From the NCBI RefSeq assembly GCF_963921235.1, contig NC_086108.1:81718001-81782000 (forward strand): DNA of 64,000 bases. The letters run 5' to 3'. Shown here piece after piece: positions 10,460 to 19,122 of this stretch (position 1 is its first letter; each line of letters opens with the position of its first letter). The notes beneath the pieces are model-generated. The model did not search any database. It was given only the letters and a program-made list of their open reading frames with translations, and was not told the origin of the DNA. The stretch comes from Mobula hypostoma. Lineage: Eukaryota. The position numbers were made by a program, and so were the translations under genes.

Positions 10460-10942
10460 CAGGGGTGGCCAACCTTTTACATTCCATGCGTCAGTCTTTT
10501 CACACACGAGTTCAGATGCGCCATACAACTCTTGTACCCCCATTCAATTCTTGTAAAAATATGTTAATTAGACATACTTAGCATTTTTACATGATATGTT
10601 GATTTAATATAAAAGCAAGATAAACATTACTTACCTTAATGAGACTTTTAAAAAATGTTTTGTCATTTTTTGATTTCTTCCTTTTTCTTAATCACATATT
10701 CTTTTCCTAACTCAGACCCAAGCACTAGCTTCAGTTTTCATTCTATTTCAGTCTGATGTTGTGTTTTATAGTGTCTATTAAGATCACGTATTCTATTATG
10801 TGAGAAAGTGTTTTCACAAACAATGCACAATGGTTTTCCTGACGGACCCGCTATAAATAAGAACTCATTTTCCCACTGTTCATTGAATTCACGCTTACTA
10901 TCACTTTCTGATTTTCTTTTGCTCATTTTCTTTTGCACTGTG

Positions 10943-11142
10943 TGTTATGTTACTTCTGTTTAAACATACCATGGGTTAACAGTAAAAAATCAAATTCTGG
11001 AAGGATTAGAGAACTTTTATTTACAGTAATGAACAAACATGTCTTAACCCAGCCACGTGTTGGAACATTCTGGCAATCCTGCGCATGCTCAGTGCTCTGT
11101 CCAGTCATGTACTGGCACATCATTGCACGTGATATCACCACA
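10943..11142 (-). repeat. 3' LTR (200 bp)
   Basis: Direct repeat of 18825-19022. By hand count the two differ by about 14 substitutions and one 2-bp indel. Confidence 0.92.
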
Positions 11143-11338
11143 TCTTCCTTTCTTTAGAAAGAAAAACAATTAACAATGTTAATCAAAGCATATCTATATC
11201 AGATAACTGAAACTCTGAAGTTGGTTCTTTCTTAAAGCCTTTGCGATTCTTTCTTAACACCACTCCCTCCCTGTTTGGACCATGTATGATCTGGTCTGTG
11301 TCCATGTGTTCCTTTTATCTTGTATCCTTACTTTGTCT

Positions 11339-11798
11339 CCTTGTCCTTTGGACAAACATCTCCTTAGATCAGTCAATTCACATTCCACTTCCATTTGTAA
11401 TGAAATACGAATCTTCTTTTCTTCATCTAATTCATTCATTAACTGTGTAATCTCTTTTTTAATGCTGAGACTTCATCATTTCAATAATACTTCTCAATTC
11501 CTTCACTTGTGCTTTCACTTCTTCCTTATACTGTGCCCACTGTGAGCGTTCTTGCTCTAGGCGGTGATGAAACTGAATCTCGTATTCTCTGTGTCTCTTT
11601 CATTATCGCTTGCATTGAAGCAACCTCCTCCTGCCATTGCTTTTTCACATCATCAGTTGCTTCCTGTTTCGTCGTCTGAGGCACTGCAGCTACTGCTTTT
11701 ATATTCTCCATGTCAGCATTTGCCTCCATGAGCTGGACCTGCAGTCGAGTTACATCACCTTCTGCAGACTGGAATGCAACATTCTGTCGCTTCAGCTC
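11339..11798 (-). pseudogene. RABEP1: Captured RABEP1 (Rabaptin-5) N-terminal coiled-coil fragment in two pieces (about 11798-11522 and 11388-11339)
   Basis: LKRQNVAFQSAEGDVTRLQVQLMEANADMENIKAVAAVPQTTKQEATDDVKKQWQEEVASMQAIMKET/REYEIQFHHRLEQERSQWAQYKE ... ECELTDLRRCLSKGQ matches recalled human RABEP1 LKRQNAVLQAAQDDLGHLRTQLWEAQAEMENIKAIATVSENTKQEAIDEVKRQWREEVASLQAVMKETVRDYEHQFHLRLEQERTQWAQYRESAEREIADLRRRLSEGQ. One frameshift lies near 11591. Confidence 0.9.
11383..11524 (-). pseudogene. SH3KBP1: Captured SH3KBP1 (CIN85) C-terminal coiled-coil fragment inserted within the RABEP1 fragment
   Basis: [47 protein letters not shown] matches recalled human CIN85 [47 protein letters not shown]. A 1-bp insertion lies at about 11461. 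Confidence 0.85.
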
Positions 11799-12533
11799 TG
11801 TGTCACTATCCAAGACAAAAATTCTTTTCACCAAATTAAGTCTTTCACAGTCAGATAAACCCAGAATTGACTGTACATTTTTTGGCACGACCACAAATGA
11901 AAGCGTATGCACAATATTTTTGTGTGATATCTTTGCCACGCATGTTCTTTTAACTGGAATATCTGCACCTGAATACTCTTTTTTTAATTTTATTTTTATT
12001 TGGATAAGGAATTCACAAATATCATGTACTTTTTTCACACATATAACCTTTTCCATTATTTTATATGTATAAAACTATAATTATTTATACATTCTTAAGT
12101 ACACATTGAGATGATATAAAAGGAAATTAAACACTTAAATAGATAATTATGTACTGTGGTAATTCTAATCTATTAGGCTAAGTAATGGTATTAGTTGTTA
12201 AGAAAAATAGTAATAATAGTTTCCATATAACTCTTCTGGACCATTTCCACTGGTCCAAAATGTTGTATGTAAGGCTATGTAACAACCATTGTAGGTGTTT
12301 ATAATCCTAATTTGTTCATGCTTGCTCCTGTCCGCAGACATAATTATCCAATCCCTATGTACTTATTTACTTAATTTTTCCATTTTTTTATCCCTTTCCC
12401 AAATCTTTCCCTTTACTTGTGTTAATTCTCTATTTTCCAAAAGAAAACAAAAAAAAAGACATTTAGACTAGGGGTGCTTACGTTAGCAATATTACTGTGT
12501 TGATGAGAAGAGCAGTATAAATCATTAGGAGAG

Positions 12534-15500
12534 TCATCTAAAGTCTGCTCGCATTGGGGTTATATATTCAATCCATTTATTCCAGATTTGATAAAATTTT
12601 TCTTTTTGAATTCTCAGGGAGTAAGTCAACTTTTCCATTTTAAATATTTCCAAGATAATTTCGTGCCAATCTTCTAATGTAGGTGGTATTGGATTTAGCC
12701 ACCTTCTAGTGATTGATTTCTTACTTGCCGGTAAGAGGACCTGCAGAAACTTTATATCTTCCTTCTGTTCAAGAAACAATACATGCCCCAAATAGAGCGT
12801 CTCAAAGTTCAGAGGTATCTGGGACCTAAGTACCTTAACTAATGTTCTAATGTTCCTTCCCAATATAGACTTAATTTAGGGCAATCCAAGAAAATATGAA
12901 AATGATTTGCCTCCTTGGAGCCGCACCTTCTCCAACACGTCACGTTTGTATCTTTATATTTTTCCTGATATGGGGTCTTGAAGTATCTTATAATGTTTTT
13001 CCAACAATGTTCTCTCCAAGTCAAAGAATTAGTCGAGGACCATTGAAAGCTGCAGATTTTCCCCCAAGCCTCCTCTGAAAGTACCAACCCCGCTTCTTTC
13101 TCCCACTTCTCTTTAATATACAGTGTATTTACATTTTTAGCATGGGAGAGTGCATTATATAATCGAGAAACTGATTTACTAGGTATTGAACTGTAAGCCG
13201 AATTCAGAATCTTGAAAAATTCTAATTCTACTGTTGATAGGTCTGTATATCTGCAACTCTGGTTAACATAGTTTCGTACTTGAAGGTACCTAAAAAAGTC
13301 ATTGTGTTCTAGGCCATGTTTGTCCTGCAGGATTTGGAAACTTTGTAATACTCTTTTATCTATAAATGAGAGGTAGGTAGTAAGACCTTTCTTTATCCAT
13401 AGCTCAAATCTTTTATCTCCTCTGTTGGGAAGGAATTCGGTATCATATGCACACCATCTAAAGAGTTTTAACATGTTATTAATTCCACATGAATTAACCA
13501 CCTTCTGCCATACTTTTAATGTAAGATTTATCCAACTGTTTTTAATTTTTTCCAACTGGGCCATCAATCCTTTGTCAGCTATTGAGGCCTGTAGAGGAAA
13601 ACTGTCAACTAATCCAAATTCTATTTCCTTCCATCTAGCCTTATATTCCCTATTACACCAATATAACAGAGGGGTTATCTGTGAGGCATAAAAATAATTT
13701 CTCAGGCAAGGAAGAACCATACCTCCTCCTTCCTTCCCTAACTGTAAGGTGTTATATCGAATTCTAGGTTTCTTTCCTTGCCAAATGAAGCGAGAAATCC
13801 ATTTGTCCCATTCCCTGAATTGATTATCATCCACCTCCACCGGTAAAGTACGGAAAAGATACAATAACCGAGGAAGAATATTCATTTTTATAGTATTTAT
13901 CCTTGAATTTAAACTTAGAAAGGGGATAAGATTCCATCTATGCATATCTGCTTTTATCTCTGAGATTAATGGCCCATAATTTACCTGTGACAGTGTTGAA
14001 AGATCCTTCGGCAGGGTTATTCCTAAATATTTTAATGATTTAGCTTCCCACTTAAGATCGTATGTATCCTGCAATTTTTTGGATGGTGTATAATTTAGGG
14101 ACATAACCTGCGTTTTCTTCACATTTATTTTATAACCTGATATTTTCCCAAAGTCATCAAACAGTGTAAACAATCCTATAAATGATTTTTCTGGTTCACT
14201 CAGATAGACCAAAACATCATCTGTGAATAACGTCACTTTCTGTTCAATCCCTGCCACCTTGATGCCTTTTACGATTTCGCTCTGTCTTATTAGTTGGGCA
14301 AGCGGTTCAATATATAACGCAAAAAGGAGAGGAGAAATTGGGCATCCCTGTCTAGTGCCTCTCTCTAAGATGAAGGAGTCAGAGAGGTCCCCATTTATCT
14401 TAATTCGGGCTGTAGGGCTGTCATATAGAGTCTGAATTACTTTAATAAACTTTTCTTGAAAGCCGAATCTTCCTAACACTCTGTATAGGAATGCCCAACT
14501 AACCGAATCAAAAGCTTTCTCAGTGTCCAATCCTACTACCATTGTCTCTGTCTCGTTCTTATTAACCTGTTCTAATATGTGCAGAGTTCTCCTTATGTTG
14601 TCCTGTGTTTGTCTTTGTTGAATAAATCCAATCTGGTCTAAATGGATTAGACCAGGTAAAGGCATTTCCAATCTGCGCGCTATTATAGATGTAAATAGTT
14701 TGTAATCTAAATTAAGAACACTAATTGGCTGATAATTGCCACATTCTAGTTTATCTTTACCCTCTTTAGGAATAACTGAAATAATCGCTTCTGTCCAGGA
14801 AGGTGGAGTTTCTCCTCTCTGCAAGATCCAATTAAAGATGTTAAGTAGTAATGGGGCTAACTCTGTCTTCAGGGACTTGTACCATTCTGAGGTAAACCCA
14901 TCAGAACCCGGGGACTTTCCAGCCTTTAACCTAGAGATGGCCACGTTCAGTTCTTTGACAGTTACTGGTTCTAATAAACTTTCATTTTGTAAATCTGTAA
15001 GTTTAGGTAGATCTAAAAAATTCAATACACTGTCTATATAGGGCTCATTGGGGGCCCGGGGTTGGGAGTACAGCTCTCGATAATATGTTTCAAAACTCTC
15101 TTGAATTTTCCCTATTGTACTCTCCACAAGCTTTGTCTTTGGATTCTTTATTTTATGAATTGTATTGTCTGCTTGTTGTTTTCGTAATTTATATGCTAAT
15201 AATCTAGCTGATTTACCTTCTACTTCATAATTCTTTTGTCTCAGGTAAAGAAAATTTCTTTGAGTTTCCAATGTATAAATATCGTCAATTTCACTTTGCA
15301 ATTTCCTAATTTCCTGTTTTCGATTTGAATTACTTTTGTTGCTATCTACAACTTGAAGTTGTTTTAATTTTCCTTGAAGGTCTGCTAATTTTTGTGCATT
15401 GATTTTTTTCATGTGAGTGGTAATGGAAATAATTTTCCCTCTCAGTACAGCTTTCAATGTATCCCATAATATCACTGGTGATGTTTCTCCCGTGTCATTA

Positions 15501-16320
15501 AGGTCTAGATATTCTTTGATTTCTCCCCTTAATCTCTCCATTACTTTCGGGTTATTGAGTATATGTGAGTTTAGCCTCCATAGTGTTTTCCTCATTTTCC
15601 TTTCCAGGATTAGAGACATAGAGACTGGGCTATGATCCGACAGATCAATTGTTGCAATATTACAGTTTTTTATCCTGAGTCTATCTGTATTAAAGATAAA
15701 GAAATAGCCTATCCTTGAATAGGCTGAATGAGGGAAAGAGTAATGTGTATAATCTTTACTAGTAGGGTGTAATTCCCTCCAGACGTCTATAATTCCCAAC
15801 TCCTCCATCAATGAGTTCATTTTCTGAGTCAGAGGTTTATTCTGAGTAACTATTCTTGAAGCATCTAATCAGGATTTAATCTAATATTAAAATCCCCTCC
15901 ACAAATTACTACCCCTGGAGAACTGACCATTAGGTCAAAAATGTGTCTATAAAATGACCATTCACAACCTGGAGGAGCATAAACATTCAGCAATGTTATT
16001 TCTGTACCTTCTATTCTTCCTGTGATTTTTACAAACCGTCCTTCTTTGTCTTTAGTCTCTGAAATATGTTCATAATTAAGAGTACTTGATATTAAAGTAG
16101 CTACCCCTCTTCTGTGACTCAATTTATATGATGAATAAAATACATGCTTAAAGCCCATTCTTTTTAATTTTCCATGTTCAGATTGGCTCATATGTGTTTC
16201 CTGGAGGAAAGCTATTTGTACCCTCTCTTTTTTCAATTTAGACATAATCTTATTTCTTTTAATTGGATTCAAAACCCCATTAACATTATAGGAAATTATT
16301 TTTACCAATTCAGTTTGCAT
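12534..16320 (-). pseudogene. L1 ORF2 (APE endonuclease, reverse transcriptase, C-terminal zinc knuckle) with two frameshifts
   Basis: EN motifs SYNVNG, FLQETH, LLNVYAP, GGDFN and SDH; RT motifs GTRQGCPISPLLF, LFTDD and KYLG; knuckle CWRRCGSKEANHFHIFLDC. Frame changes at about 15870 and 12850. Confidence 0.93.
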
Positions 16321-16682
16321 TTTTCATTAGTAGAAAAAAAACACTCTCTATTTCTAACCAAACAGTAAGCAATCCCTTCTCAACAGTAAACCAAGACATA
16401 TAACCACACCCTAGACATTTTTGAACGTGTAACATTTGAAAATTTTTCCCGACTTCCCACAGTGAGGCCTGAGCACCGACCCGCCTCAGTTCAGAGGGAT
16501 AACCTCTATCTTCACCCTGTGTTAGAGAGCCCTCAGCAGTTTGAATAATCATAGAGAATTTTCTCCTATTTATGTCTCGACCATATTGCTATCATTCAAG
16601 TTATTCCGCCTAGTTTATCTTCAGTTACCAGTTTTCATTTTACCTTTAAGTCCGATTTACTCTTTTCAGTCATTTCTCTTAA

Positions 16683-17669
16683 TTAATCTGTATTCTCTGT
16701 ATATTCGCCTCTGAATATTTGCAGCTTTTCCTTGTAGTTTGACACTCTGGTTGGAGTGGAGCGTCCTCGCCCCACTAACTGCCATGACTTCTGCCGAATC
16801 CTCTCCAGTAGCGACTCTGGTTGGGTGATAACTTTAATAGGTAGTCCCCGGTCCACCAGGTCCGACGTTGCCTCCTCCACCGTAACGTAAGTTTTTGTCC
16901 CTTCGTCGTAAAAGACTCTCAGCCGAGCTGGATACAGGATCTGGAATCTGATGTTGTTTTCCTTCAGGACTCTCCGTGTTTCCGTATATTCCTTCCGTCT
17001 GGCAAGAATCCCTGGTGCGTAGTCGTGATCTAAACTGATTTTACAGTTGCTCCACATGAAACCTTTCTTTTGCCATGCCCTTTTAAGCACCTCTTCCTTC
17101 GTTCTGTAACGGAGAAATCTGACCAGAATTGATCTGGGCTGGGCGCCTGCCAGGGGCTGTGGTGCAAACGCGCGGTGAGCCCTTTCTATCTGTAGGTCTT
17201 TTGCGGCCGGTGTATCAAGGTTCTCTCTAAGCAGCTTCTCTATGAAGGGAATCATCAATCCGGGTTTACCTTCGATTCCTTCGGGAACTCCGTAGATCCT
17301 CACATTTTCCCTTCTCGAGCGGCCTTCTTGATCTGTTAGTTTCCACTGGAGCCGGTCTTGCAGCTTCAGCATTTCTGCTATCACTTCCTCAACGTTTTGT
17401 AGCTTCTCTTCAATTCCAACAATCCTCGCTTCGGCTTCATCTATCCGCGAGTTAGTTTTTACTATTTCTCCTTTAATATCTTGCAGCTCTTTGCTGTTAT
17501 CTTGTCAGAACTCGCGAATCTCTCCGAGAATCAAAGACAGAGTCACCGATTCCCCCTCATTATCTCCGTCCTGGCTTGCCATGGGGGAGCTAGGCCCGTC
17601 GCCTTGCTGCGTCTCTTTATGTTTATCAGCCTTCGGAGCGGACTTTTTAACCTTGTTCTTAGACATCAT
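16683..17669 (-). pseudogene. L1 ORF1 (coiled coil, RRM, CTD) with one premature stop
   Basis: The ATG at 17669 is in frame with EGRSRRENVRIYGVPEG...IERAHR...PRSILVRF...YPARLRV. An in-frame TGA lies at 17505-17507 (likely CGA>TGA). Confidence 0.9.
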
Positions 17670-17816
17670 GCTTGCCCCTTTTATTAATATAGTTATGCAA
17701 TATTAAGTATTTGTCTAAATTCGATTTTGGGGCAGTTTACCTTCTTTTTTGTCAAAGAGACCTTTTCCTTACGCCGCCATTCCCTTGATGACCCGGAAGT
17801 CCACACCTGAATACTC

Positions 17817-18727
17817 AGTCACTTTTATATTTCTCTGATGTAACTTCGGTCTTGGCTTTAAAGCATTAAGCTCAGATTCTGCAAGAACATTTACTTGCGC
17901 TCCAGTATCAAGTTTAAACAGAATATTGTTTTGATTCACTTGCAACGGGATAGTCCAATCATTCTTTCTTTGTTTATTTTCACAAGGCACATCTATATAC
18001 AATTCCTCACATTCATCTTCAAACACAGCATTTACTTGTTTCAATTTATTTTCCTCCTTTCTACTTTTACAACGGTGTGAAAAATGATTAGTCTTACCGC
18101 AGCCATTGCAAATTTTGTCATATGCGGGACACTGATTTGGACGATGTTCCCGCGCACAGCGATCACATGACTTCTTTCTTTCCAGTGCTGTCTTGCTCTC
18201 TGTCGGTTTCATTGACGTGTTATTATATTTCTTGATATATTTGCGCTTTTTTACAGCGTTTACATTGCAGTTTTCGACAAAAAGCTCTTCAGCCTGCACC
18301 GTCACAGTCTCAGAAGCTTTGCAAAGAGCCAAAGCTTTTTCAAAATTTAAATCTTGCACTCTCAACAGTCTACTATGCTTTCTTAACTCAGTAACATACT
18401 GATCAATTGTTTCAGCAGCTCTGCGCACATGTGAAGAATTTTTATCCCTCATACGTTAAATTACGCATAGGTATACAAAATACTTCAAATCTGTCCATTA
18501 TCAACTTTAAATTGAAATTATCTCCATCTTCAAAGACAAAATTATTAATATACCTCTACTGTATCATTCCCGATTACAAGGAGCAAAAGCGCAGCTTTGT
18601 TTTTTTCTAAATTTTCTTCATAATCGATCACTAATAAGTATAGTTCAAACTATTGCTTGAAGATCCTCTAATTCTCCGCTACATTGCCAGTCAGCTGAAG
18701 TTTTGGTGGGGGTTGTAAACCTTCCAT
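17817..18727 (-). pseudogene. Degraded Gypsy gag and aspartic protease N-terminal half (protease continues at 11965-11799)
   Basis: MEGLQPPPKLQLTGNVAEN start, Cys/His knuckle CPAYDKICNGCGKTNHFSHRC, and catalytic FKLDTGAQVNVL. After removing the L1 the frame continues EYSGADIPV...SILGLSDCERLNLVKRI. Confidence 0.88.
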
Positions 18728-18810
18728 TTTACCGTTTACTGTTCGAACTTTTTTCTTTTTTTGTTCGATCATCTTCAATTCTCGATTCTCCCGTCTTATT
18801 CTTCCAGAAC

Positions 18811-18824
18811 CACTTCTGACACCA
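18811..18824 (-). other. Primer-binding site, probably tRNA-Leu
   Basis: cacttctgacacca on + matches the recalled 3' end of vertebrate tRNA-Leu (…CACUUCUGACACCA) and abuts the 5' LTR. Confidence 0.75.
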
Positions 18825-19022
18825 TGTTATGTTACTTCTGTTTAAACATACCGTGGGTTAACAGTAAAGAATCATATTCTGGAAGAATTAGAGAACTTTT
18901 ATTTACAGTAATAAACAAACACATCTTAACCCAGCCACACGCTGGAACACTAGCAATCCCGTGCATGCTCAGTGCTCTGTCCAATCATGTACTGGCACAT
19001 CATTGCACGTGATATCACCACA
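18825..19022 (-). repeat. 5' LTR (198 bp)
   Basis: TG...CA termini, direct repeat of 10943-11142, adjacent to the PBS. Confidence 0.92.
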
Positions 19023-19122
19023 CAGTGATGAGTAACTGAATGTAAAAACAAGGCTTAATTTTCAAAAAAAGTCCAAAACTGCAAATGTTCACGAAGGACA
19101 AACAAAGCACAACTCCGTAGCG

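Follow-up and report, generated by a model that had tools for sequence, protein, structure and literature searches.

In a family of non-autonomous Ty3/gypsy LTR retrotransposons of the ray Mobula hypostoma, whose members carry captured, spliced pieces of host genes, we found that the joins and large deletions shared between copies keep the reading frame far more often than the indels private to single copies (22/23 versus 30/86 in frame; Fisher p=9e-8), and that a similarity-matched null assigns the 22/23 a probability of 9e-9 to 1e-7. We consider it very probable that this excess reflects selection on the reading frame in the variants that spread, acting during replication on the element and not on the host. 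This selection is strong but not absolute, because certain lineages seem to have amplified despite a disrupted frame, and whereas the selection on frame is well supported, the reason for it is not.

A decayed LTR element with host-gene cargo

The feature in the window (the whole 64,000-nucleotide stretch of DNA analyzed) is a dead copy of this family with captured spliced host pieces, and displays the Ty3/gypsy hallmarks of direct LTRs with TG...CA ends, a primer-binding site, a polypurine tract and a short target-site duplication. Within Ty3/gypsy, it may resemble Mag-like elements. Its parts, from the 5′ to the 3′ end of the element, are as follows:

19023-19027: target-site duplication, copy 1, 5 bp, adjoining the 5′ LTR
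18825..19022 (-): 5′ LTR, TG...CA ends
18810..18824 (-): primer-binding site directly inside the 5′ LTR, which we take to match tRNA-Leu
17957..18727 (-): gag, with its ATG at 18727 and a Cys/His knuckle region
17804..17956 (-): aspartic protease, N-terminal part, with the LDTGA motif (gag-asp_proteas E=9e-4)
11979..17803 (-): L1-like LINE, a later sense-orientation insertion within the protease
17816-17804 and 11978-11966: target-site duplication of the LINE, 13 bp
11800..11978 (-): protease, C-terminal part, terminating where 159 nt of the RT N-terminus, still present in the RABEP1-only sister form, have been deleted in frame
11525..11799 (-): RABEP1 cargo 1 (~aa 61-152), spliced, crossing an exon-exon join; frameshift ~11591
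11390..11524 (-): SH3KBP1 (CIN85) C-terminal coiled coil, spliced over three exons; frameshift ~11462
11336..11389 (-): RABEP1 cargo 2, resuming the same exon as cargo 1, two codons on
11183..11335 (-): integrase C-terminal tail, with an in-frame 27-nt deletion at 11295/11294 common to copies; frameshift ~11270
11185-11183 (-): end of the frame of the integrase tail, set by a shared deletion
11143..11155 (-): polypurine tract
10943..11142 (-): 3′ LTR, 200 nt
10942-10938: target-site duplication, copy 2, adjoining the 3′ LTR, with 1 mismatch to copy 1

The two LTRs of this copy diverge by 8% over 200 columns. Its protease is split by the 5.8-kb LINE, its gag is broken by stop codons at 18670 and 18652, by frameshifts and by a private ~82-nt gap near 18370, and the three frameshifts listed above fall over the cargo and integrase tail. 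The LINE itself is nearly full-length, with an open stretch of 1009 codons in ORF2 (12839-15868). The sequence around the LTR element (10738-10944 and 19028-19100) resembles what is left of a hAT DNA transposon, with the element nested inside it.

A first-pass annotation of the window had named RABEP1 and SH3KBP1 as the sources of the cargo, all in sense orientation, and protein identity, Pfam and the host genes in the genome bear this out. The RABEP1 cargo is 94% identical at the amino acid level to ray RABEP1 and matches Pfam Rabaptin (E=4e-26), and the SH3KBP1 cargo matches the corresponding stretch of a natural chimeric protein (P0028) at 94%, as well as PDB 2N64/5ABS. Both host genes were located in the same genome, their exon joins are crossed by the cargo in sense, and the closest named host proteins are from myliobatiform rays. 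A third cargo, a lysine-rich piece of SLU7 (~aa 428-492), is found spliced and in frame within the integrase tail of a sister subfamily (L057:3074-3275, L135-L184), most copies of which have no protease and a duplicated 3′ tail. An ESM Atlas lead (score 0.76) that pointed to NKAPD1 for this piece was wrong. The SLU7 exon that serves as cargo appears to finish at a GC splice donor (L165:8226-8309). Exon-exon joins of all three genes are present inside the element, and the capture ends feature 4-7-nt shared runs, microsimilarity at the switch points being mostly 3-8 nt long. We rejected an origin as an L1-made processed pseudogene, which would bring a poly(A) tail, its own target-site duplication and an intact 3′ end: the cargo lies inside the element, is truncated at either end and is fused to pol sequence.

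Origin of the four joins in the window copy

Three-frame translation of the minus strand confirms the earlier observation that all four cargo junctions keep the frame, namely protease/RABEP1 (VLDSDTE/LKRQ, 11800/11799), RABEP1/SH3KBP1 (QYKE/EVKAQ, 11525/11524), SH3KBP1/RABEP1 (QMEVE/CELTD, ~11390-11383) and RABEP1/integrase tail (SKGQ/GDKVRI, ~11336-11333). Of 40 window-type loci, 33, 39, 36 and 39, respectively, have them on one and the same diagonal. The two cargo frameshifts, which had been ascribed to later decay, are indeed of that kind: the one at ~11591 sits at an AG repeat and occurs in 7/40 covered copies, the one at ~11462 sits at an A run and occurs in 4/41, and host-gene contigs have neither.

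Not all four joins mark captures, as had been claimed; only RABEP1/integrase is a primary capture end, which is common to the RABEP1-only form and shows a 7-nt microhomology. The protease/RABEP1 join stems from a later deletion, that of the 159-nt RT stub, which L051, L052 and L193 retain before the true capture end. The two joins between RABEP1 and SH3KBP1 are best read as template switches between sister RNAs that swapped two RABEP1 codons for the CIN85 coil, since SH3KBP1-only and RABEP1-SH3KBP1 forms exist. We accordingly rejected four independent captures: judged by the parents and intermediates, the joins comprise a single capture end, a pol deletion and two swaps between sister elements. 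The chance of about 1 in 81 assigned to four in-frame joins likewise rises to ~0.07 under a similarity-matched null, the in-frame shares matched to local similarity being 0.42, 0.67, 0.60 and 0.44 (product 0.07). The argument from the four joins is weak both for this reason and because the joins are not independent captures.

Forms of the family

A DNA search returned 662 first-look candidates; the 40 that were scored are all complete or nearly so, at 90-100%. Two exact motifs yielded 188 and 222 matches, and their reversed controls gave 0. We aligned 149 distinct cargo-bearing loci singly to natural references and host coding pieces. The forms among them are SH3KBP1-only (50 loci), the window type RABEP1-SH3KBP1-RABEP1 (40), RABEP1-SH3KBP1-SLU7 (52, in 43 of which the protease is deleted) and RABEP1-only. 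There are also full-pol parents: in 27/30 loci holding the RT stub, the RT runs on, with matches to Pfam RVT_1, RT_RNaseH and then rve, and the domain order of the autonomous parent is gag-PR-RT-RNase H-IN. For the three large subfamilies, the median divergence within LTR pairs is 7-8% (14, 14 and 19 pairs). A motif-based sample of 93 loci comprises 53 with cargo, 36 with the integrase core and no cargo and 4 that are uninformative; 46 of the 53 cargo loci retain 90% or more of the SH3KBP1 coil core, 3 have RABEP1 only and 4 a cut coil. Gag differs by ~11% between the mosaic and SH3KBP1-only types and the cargo by at most 1%, a disparity that points to exchange with different helpers; the net dN/dS of gag between subfamilies (0.32-0.35) was set aside as evidence given this likely exchange.

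Several individual rearrangements deserve a record. A shared, in-frame, stop-free join in L188, L210, L214 and seven more loci cuts the C-terminal third of the coil and includes ~12 nt of the reverse complement of the adjoining integrase sequence. The RT358/SH3KBP1 join (L068, L059-L061) used an in-frame 5-nt microhomology, with a 10-nt out-of-frame one lying 5 nt upstream. At a single locus, L245, SH3KBP1 is joined much further down the RT, which may be a vestige of an early form that had lost less sequence.

Preservation of the reading frame across the family

The 23 shared events are curated joins and large deletions located upstream of the stop codon and present in at least two loci each. 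We left out a double-counted RT360/RABEP1 join (L132 and L264 represent one place) and two joins that coincide with the stop or follow it. Nine shared indels of just 6-18 nt, of which six keep the frame and three do not, were excluded as well; with these nine the tally is 28/32 in frame. The private indels, which come mostly from genomic repair and not from RT, were counted at 6 nt or more; at 12 nt or more, 13/45 are in frame. The sample derives partly from a protein search, which may favor in-frame chimeras, and 19/23 joins (18 of them in frame) are also found in 70 loci sampled by DNA motif. A shared join after the stop codon (6 loci) offers an internal control and is out of frame. All 8 of the joins downstream of the coil are in frame, and many in-frame joins display just 3-4 nt of homology.

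The first-pass annotation had proposed that the progenitor was a selected Gag-protease-coiled-coil open frame, and had named a break in the family consensus as telling against it. That conclusion is supported by the family-wide frame excess and by the lack of a majority break, and not by the four-join argument on which it had been based. Openness was judged by whether breaks are shared between copies, without a consensus, and in the 40 window-type loci no stop or frameshift common to most copies was found. The most-shared stop (a CpG) is in 9/37 and the most-shared frameshift, in an A run of the protease, in 9-12/35, the latter showing no clustering on a 23-copy tree (434/500 shuffles were as low). 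When the stretch between gag codon 4 and the tail is divided into 16 segments, each has an in-frame length as its commonest one (40 window-type loci), and in a natural sister copy, L062, the frame stays open for 563 codons, beginning in gag and running via SH3KBP1 to the integrase stop. As most copies have no break in common, the window-type progenitor was likely one open frame.

Some sub-lineages seem to have amplified with inherited frameshifts. In the SLU7 type, a 2-nt loss in an A run of gag, upstream of the cargo, is found in 17/43 copies; it is weakly clustered (28/500 shuffles), with one supported 12-row branch consisting entirely of -2 or -3 states. The SH3KBP1-only type shows two 1-nt losses at the coil end, in 11 and 5 copies, one of which is in all four copies of one deletion type. 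An out-of-frame gag/SH3KBP1 join is shared by L231 and L254, and the single shared join that is out of frame coincides with the strongest microhomology of any (14/16). Cargo dN/dS, suggested earlier as a check, was computed against the host genes and between subfamilies and proved powerless, since few net substitutions separate the captured pieces from their host counterparts: amino-acid constraint was undetectable at net divergences from the host of ~1-9 substitutions per piece (bootstrap P 0.05-0.87), and within-family dN/dS is ~0.5-0.9 for the main pieces.

Why the frame is kept

We posit, with about as much confidence as doubt, that the spreading variants were selected to keep one Gag(-protease)-coiled-coil protein that helps its own RNA into helper-built particles. 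RABEP1, SH3KBP1 and later SLU7 would in all probability have been captured separately at 4-7-nt microhomologies, with spliced host pieces likely replacing the RT/RNase H/integrase core via reverse-transcriptase template switching, and the RABEP1-SH3KBP1-RABEP1 mosaic would, with similar assurance, have come from switching between co-packaged sister RNAs. Selection would most probably have operated while the element replicated, and on the element itself instead of the host. The coil might then take over the self-association of the lost Pol, such that the fusion oligomerizes and acts in cis, this being the weak link in the sequence of events; the benefit must be in cis because the element is helper-dependent.

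Of the purposes suggested in the first-pass annotation for such a coil, oligomerization gains indirect support, endosome targeting gains none and avoidance of NMD is a live rival (see below). The shared deletions repeatedly trim the proline-rich part and spare the coil; only 1/11 cuts it. This has P=0.004 when deletions are confined to the RT stub, cargo and tail, and a non-significant P=0.26-0.37 once gag and protease are also counted deletable. A three-copy structural model of P0028 aa 93-247 scores 0.45 against 0.00 for the best control, with contacts spanning both cargo joins, agreement between runs in at least 93% of contacts and pLDDT of at least 77. The mark it passes is reached by 21/30 solved pairs and 0/23 single chains (eukaryotes 17/29, animals 7/16), and the pass may reflect memory of the solved CIN85 coil, which trimerizes (as described in PMC10786037). 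The sequences read as keeping the heptad register across the first cargo join, with a stutter at the second. Dimerization of the protease cannot be the general role, because the protease is deleted in 43 SLU7-type loci. Coil function alone leaves the in-frame state of the 8 downstream joins unexplained, and the account of yeast mini-Ty1/Ty3 elements moving with every protein supplied in trans (PMC4974528) also counts against it. A more sweeping formulation, which we offer tentatively and at less than an even chance, is that a vertebrate germ-line retrotransposon took the host oligomerization coils of RABEP1 and CIN85 as working parts of its capsid protein in place of Pol and then evolved as a swarm of helper-dependent variants, among which selection preserved a common frame for Gag and coil and pared away everything else, i.e., domain theft for selfish particle assembly and not accidental cargo.

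The in-frame joins downstream of the coil, along with the SLU7 piece, which is unrelated and not a coil donor here, are better accommodated if selection acted at the level of the RNA. Ribosome transit to near the 3′ LTR could afford escape from NMD or translation-coupled export or packaging, the cargo protein being a passenger for which any stop-free sense filler would work. The tolerated frameshifts, which are mostly near the 3′ end, and a cargo free of amino-acid constraint agree with this, as does the coupling of Ty1 RNA targeting to translation (as reported in PMC4974528). However, a cargo-free in-frame deletion from protease to tail should then serve equally, and none of the 93 motif-sampled loci has the protease joined directly to the integrase tail. 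The repeated removal of the proline-rich part with the coil left in place, and the SLU7 sub-lineage that seems to have spread despite an early gag stop, also speak against such RNA-level selection, which we regard as possible but on the doubtful side. The neutral alternative raised in the first-pass annotation, that switching at codon-periodic, purine-rich microhomology yields in-frame joins, with founder luck supplying the rest, is improbable. It does raise the in-frame expectation to 0.35-0.67 per join, in-frame microhomologies being enriched (0.37-0.48 overall, up to 0.67 for RABEP1/SH3KBP1) in cargo that is 64-69% purine, and it copes with the four window joins taken alone and with an out-of-frame shared join at the best microhomology. 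Yet it fails on the family-wide pattern, given the matched null for the 22/23, the many in-frame joins with minimal homology and the 35% in-frame share of the private indels (mostly products of genomic repair, not RT), and is already disfavored. Even less credence, and indeed very little, attaches to the family having been seeded by a host-domesticated chimeric gene (e.g., a dominant-negative restriction factor or endocytic regulator) kept by host selection. Such a gene would fit the models annotated in two other rays that contain the fusion (P0028, P0033), but the copies decay near-neutrally, with terminal branches of ~3-7% and the LTR-pair divergence given above, no conserved single locus was seen among the many decaying copies, and both database proteins are partial or frameshifted.

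Comparison with known elements

Acutely transforming retroviruses are helper-dependent carriers of gag-onc fusions that are selected via cell growth, and not via germ-line copy number as proposed for the ray family. An artificial coiled coil placed behind protease or Gag has the oligomerizing effect proposed here, with the protease case lowering particle yield; these fusions show that the effect is possible, not that it is beneficial. The mechanism of capture is already established from LTR-mediated retrocopies of animals, which are described as arising by template switching at microsimilarity with a median of 6 bp (Tan et al. 2016, PMC5131818). As in those retrocopies, spliced partial mRNA stands in place of internal ORFs between LTRs, with multi-gene chimeras and renewed retroposition (PMC5131818), and the ray family displays intronless mRNA replacing ORFs, microsimilarity at switch points and non-autonomous re-spread across the 149 distinct cargo loci. 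The cases as presented there differ in having few insertion sites, and 'in-frame' is used in relation to the parental protein (PMC5131818), whereas the ray family runs to hundreds of copies, draws on three host genes and shows more than 20 rearrangements that were amplified, along with a measurable excess of joins in frame with gag. Maize Bs1 and human FAM8A1-in-ERV (cited in PMC5131818) are likewise retroelements with host mRNA pieces, some of them multi-gene and helper-dependent, but represent single or few events.

The TR-GAG elements of plants are short, non-autonomous LTR elements with a single Gag ORF, mobilized by an autonomous relative (PMC8704663), and are comparable as helper-dependent short LTR elements. 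No host cargo is described for them in the available text of PMC8704663, whereas in this vertebrate Gag(-PR) is extended by host coiled coils; the ray elements also depart from the TR-GAG definition of a single Gag ORF with no other coding cargo, in that host cargo and integrase tail lengthen the frame. We found no publication on this ray family in the literature searched, a scope outside which most subscription journals and repeat databases fall. Tested here are the frame excess, quantified with two controls, the four-join argument, which is demoted, and the counter-examples. Non-autonomous LTR elements are usually thought to need cis signals alone, and here the frame mattered for spread. With parents, intermediates and more than 20 amplified rearrangements in one genome, the family constitutes a rare natural test and makes it a testable question whether captured genes are passive riders or whether translation or the fused protein is advantageous to the carrier. 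It also provides a stepwise record of exon shuffling by a retroelement among three host genes in a vertebrate.

Contigs from strandless runs, whose RNA origin is a guess, span protease/RABEP1 (X3, X7) and tail-RABEP1-SH3KBP1 (X3) at a depth of 8-11; they do not demonstrate transcription. The same fusion is held in frame by both P0028 and P0033; these public gene models, labeled 'RABEP1-like' and 'uncharacterized', are copies of the retroelement and not RABEP1 paralogues.
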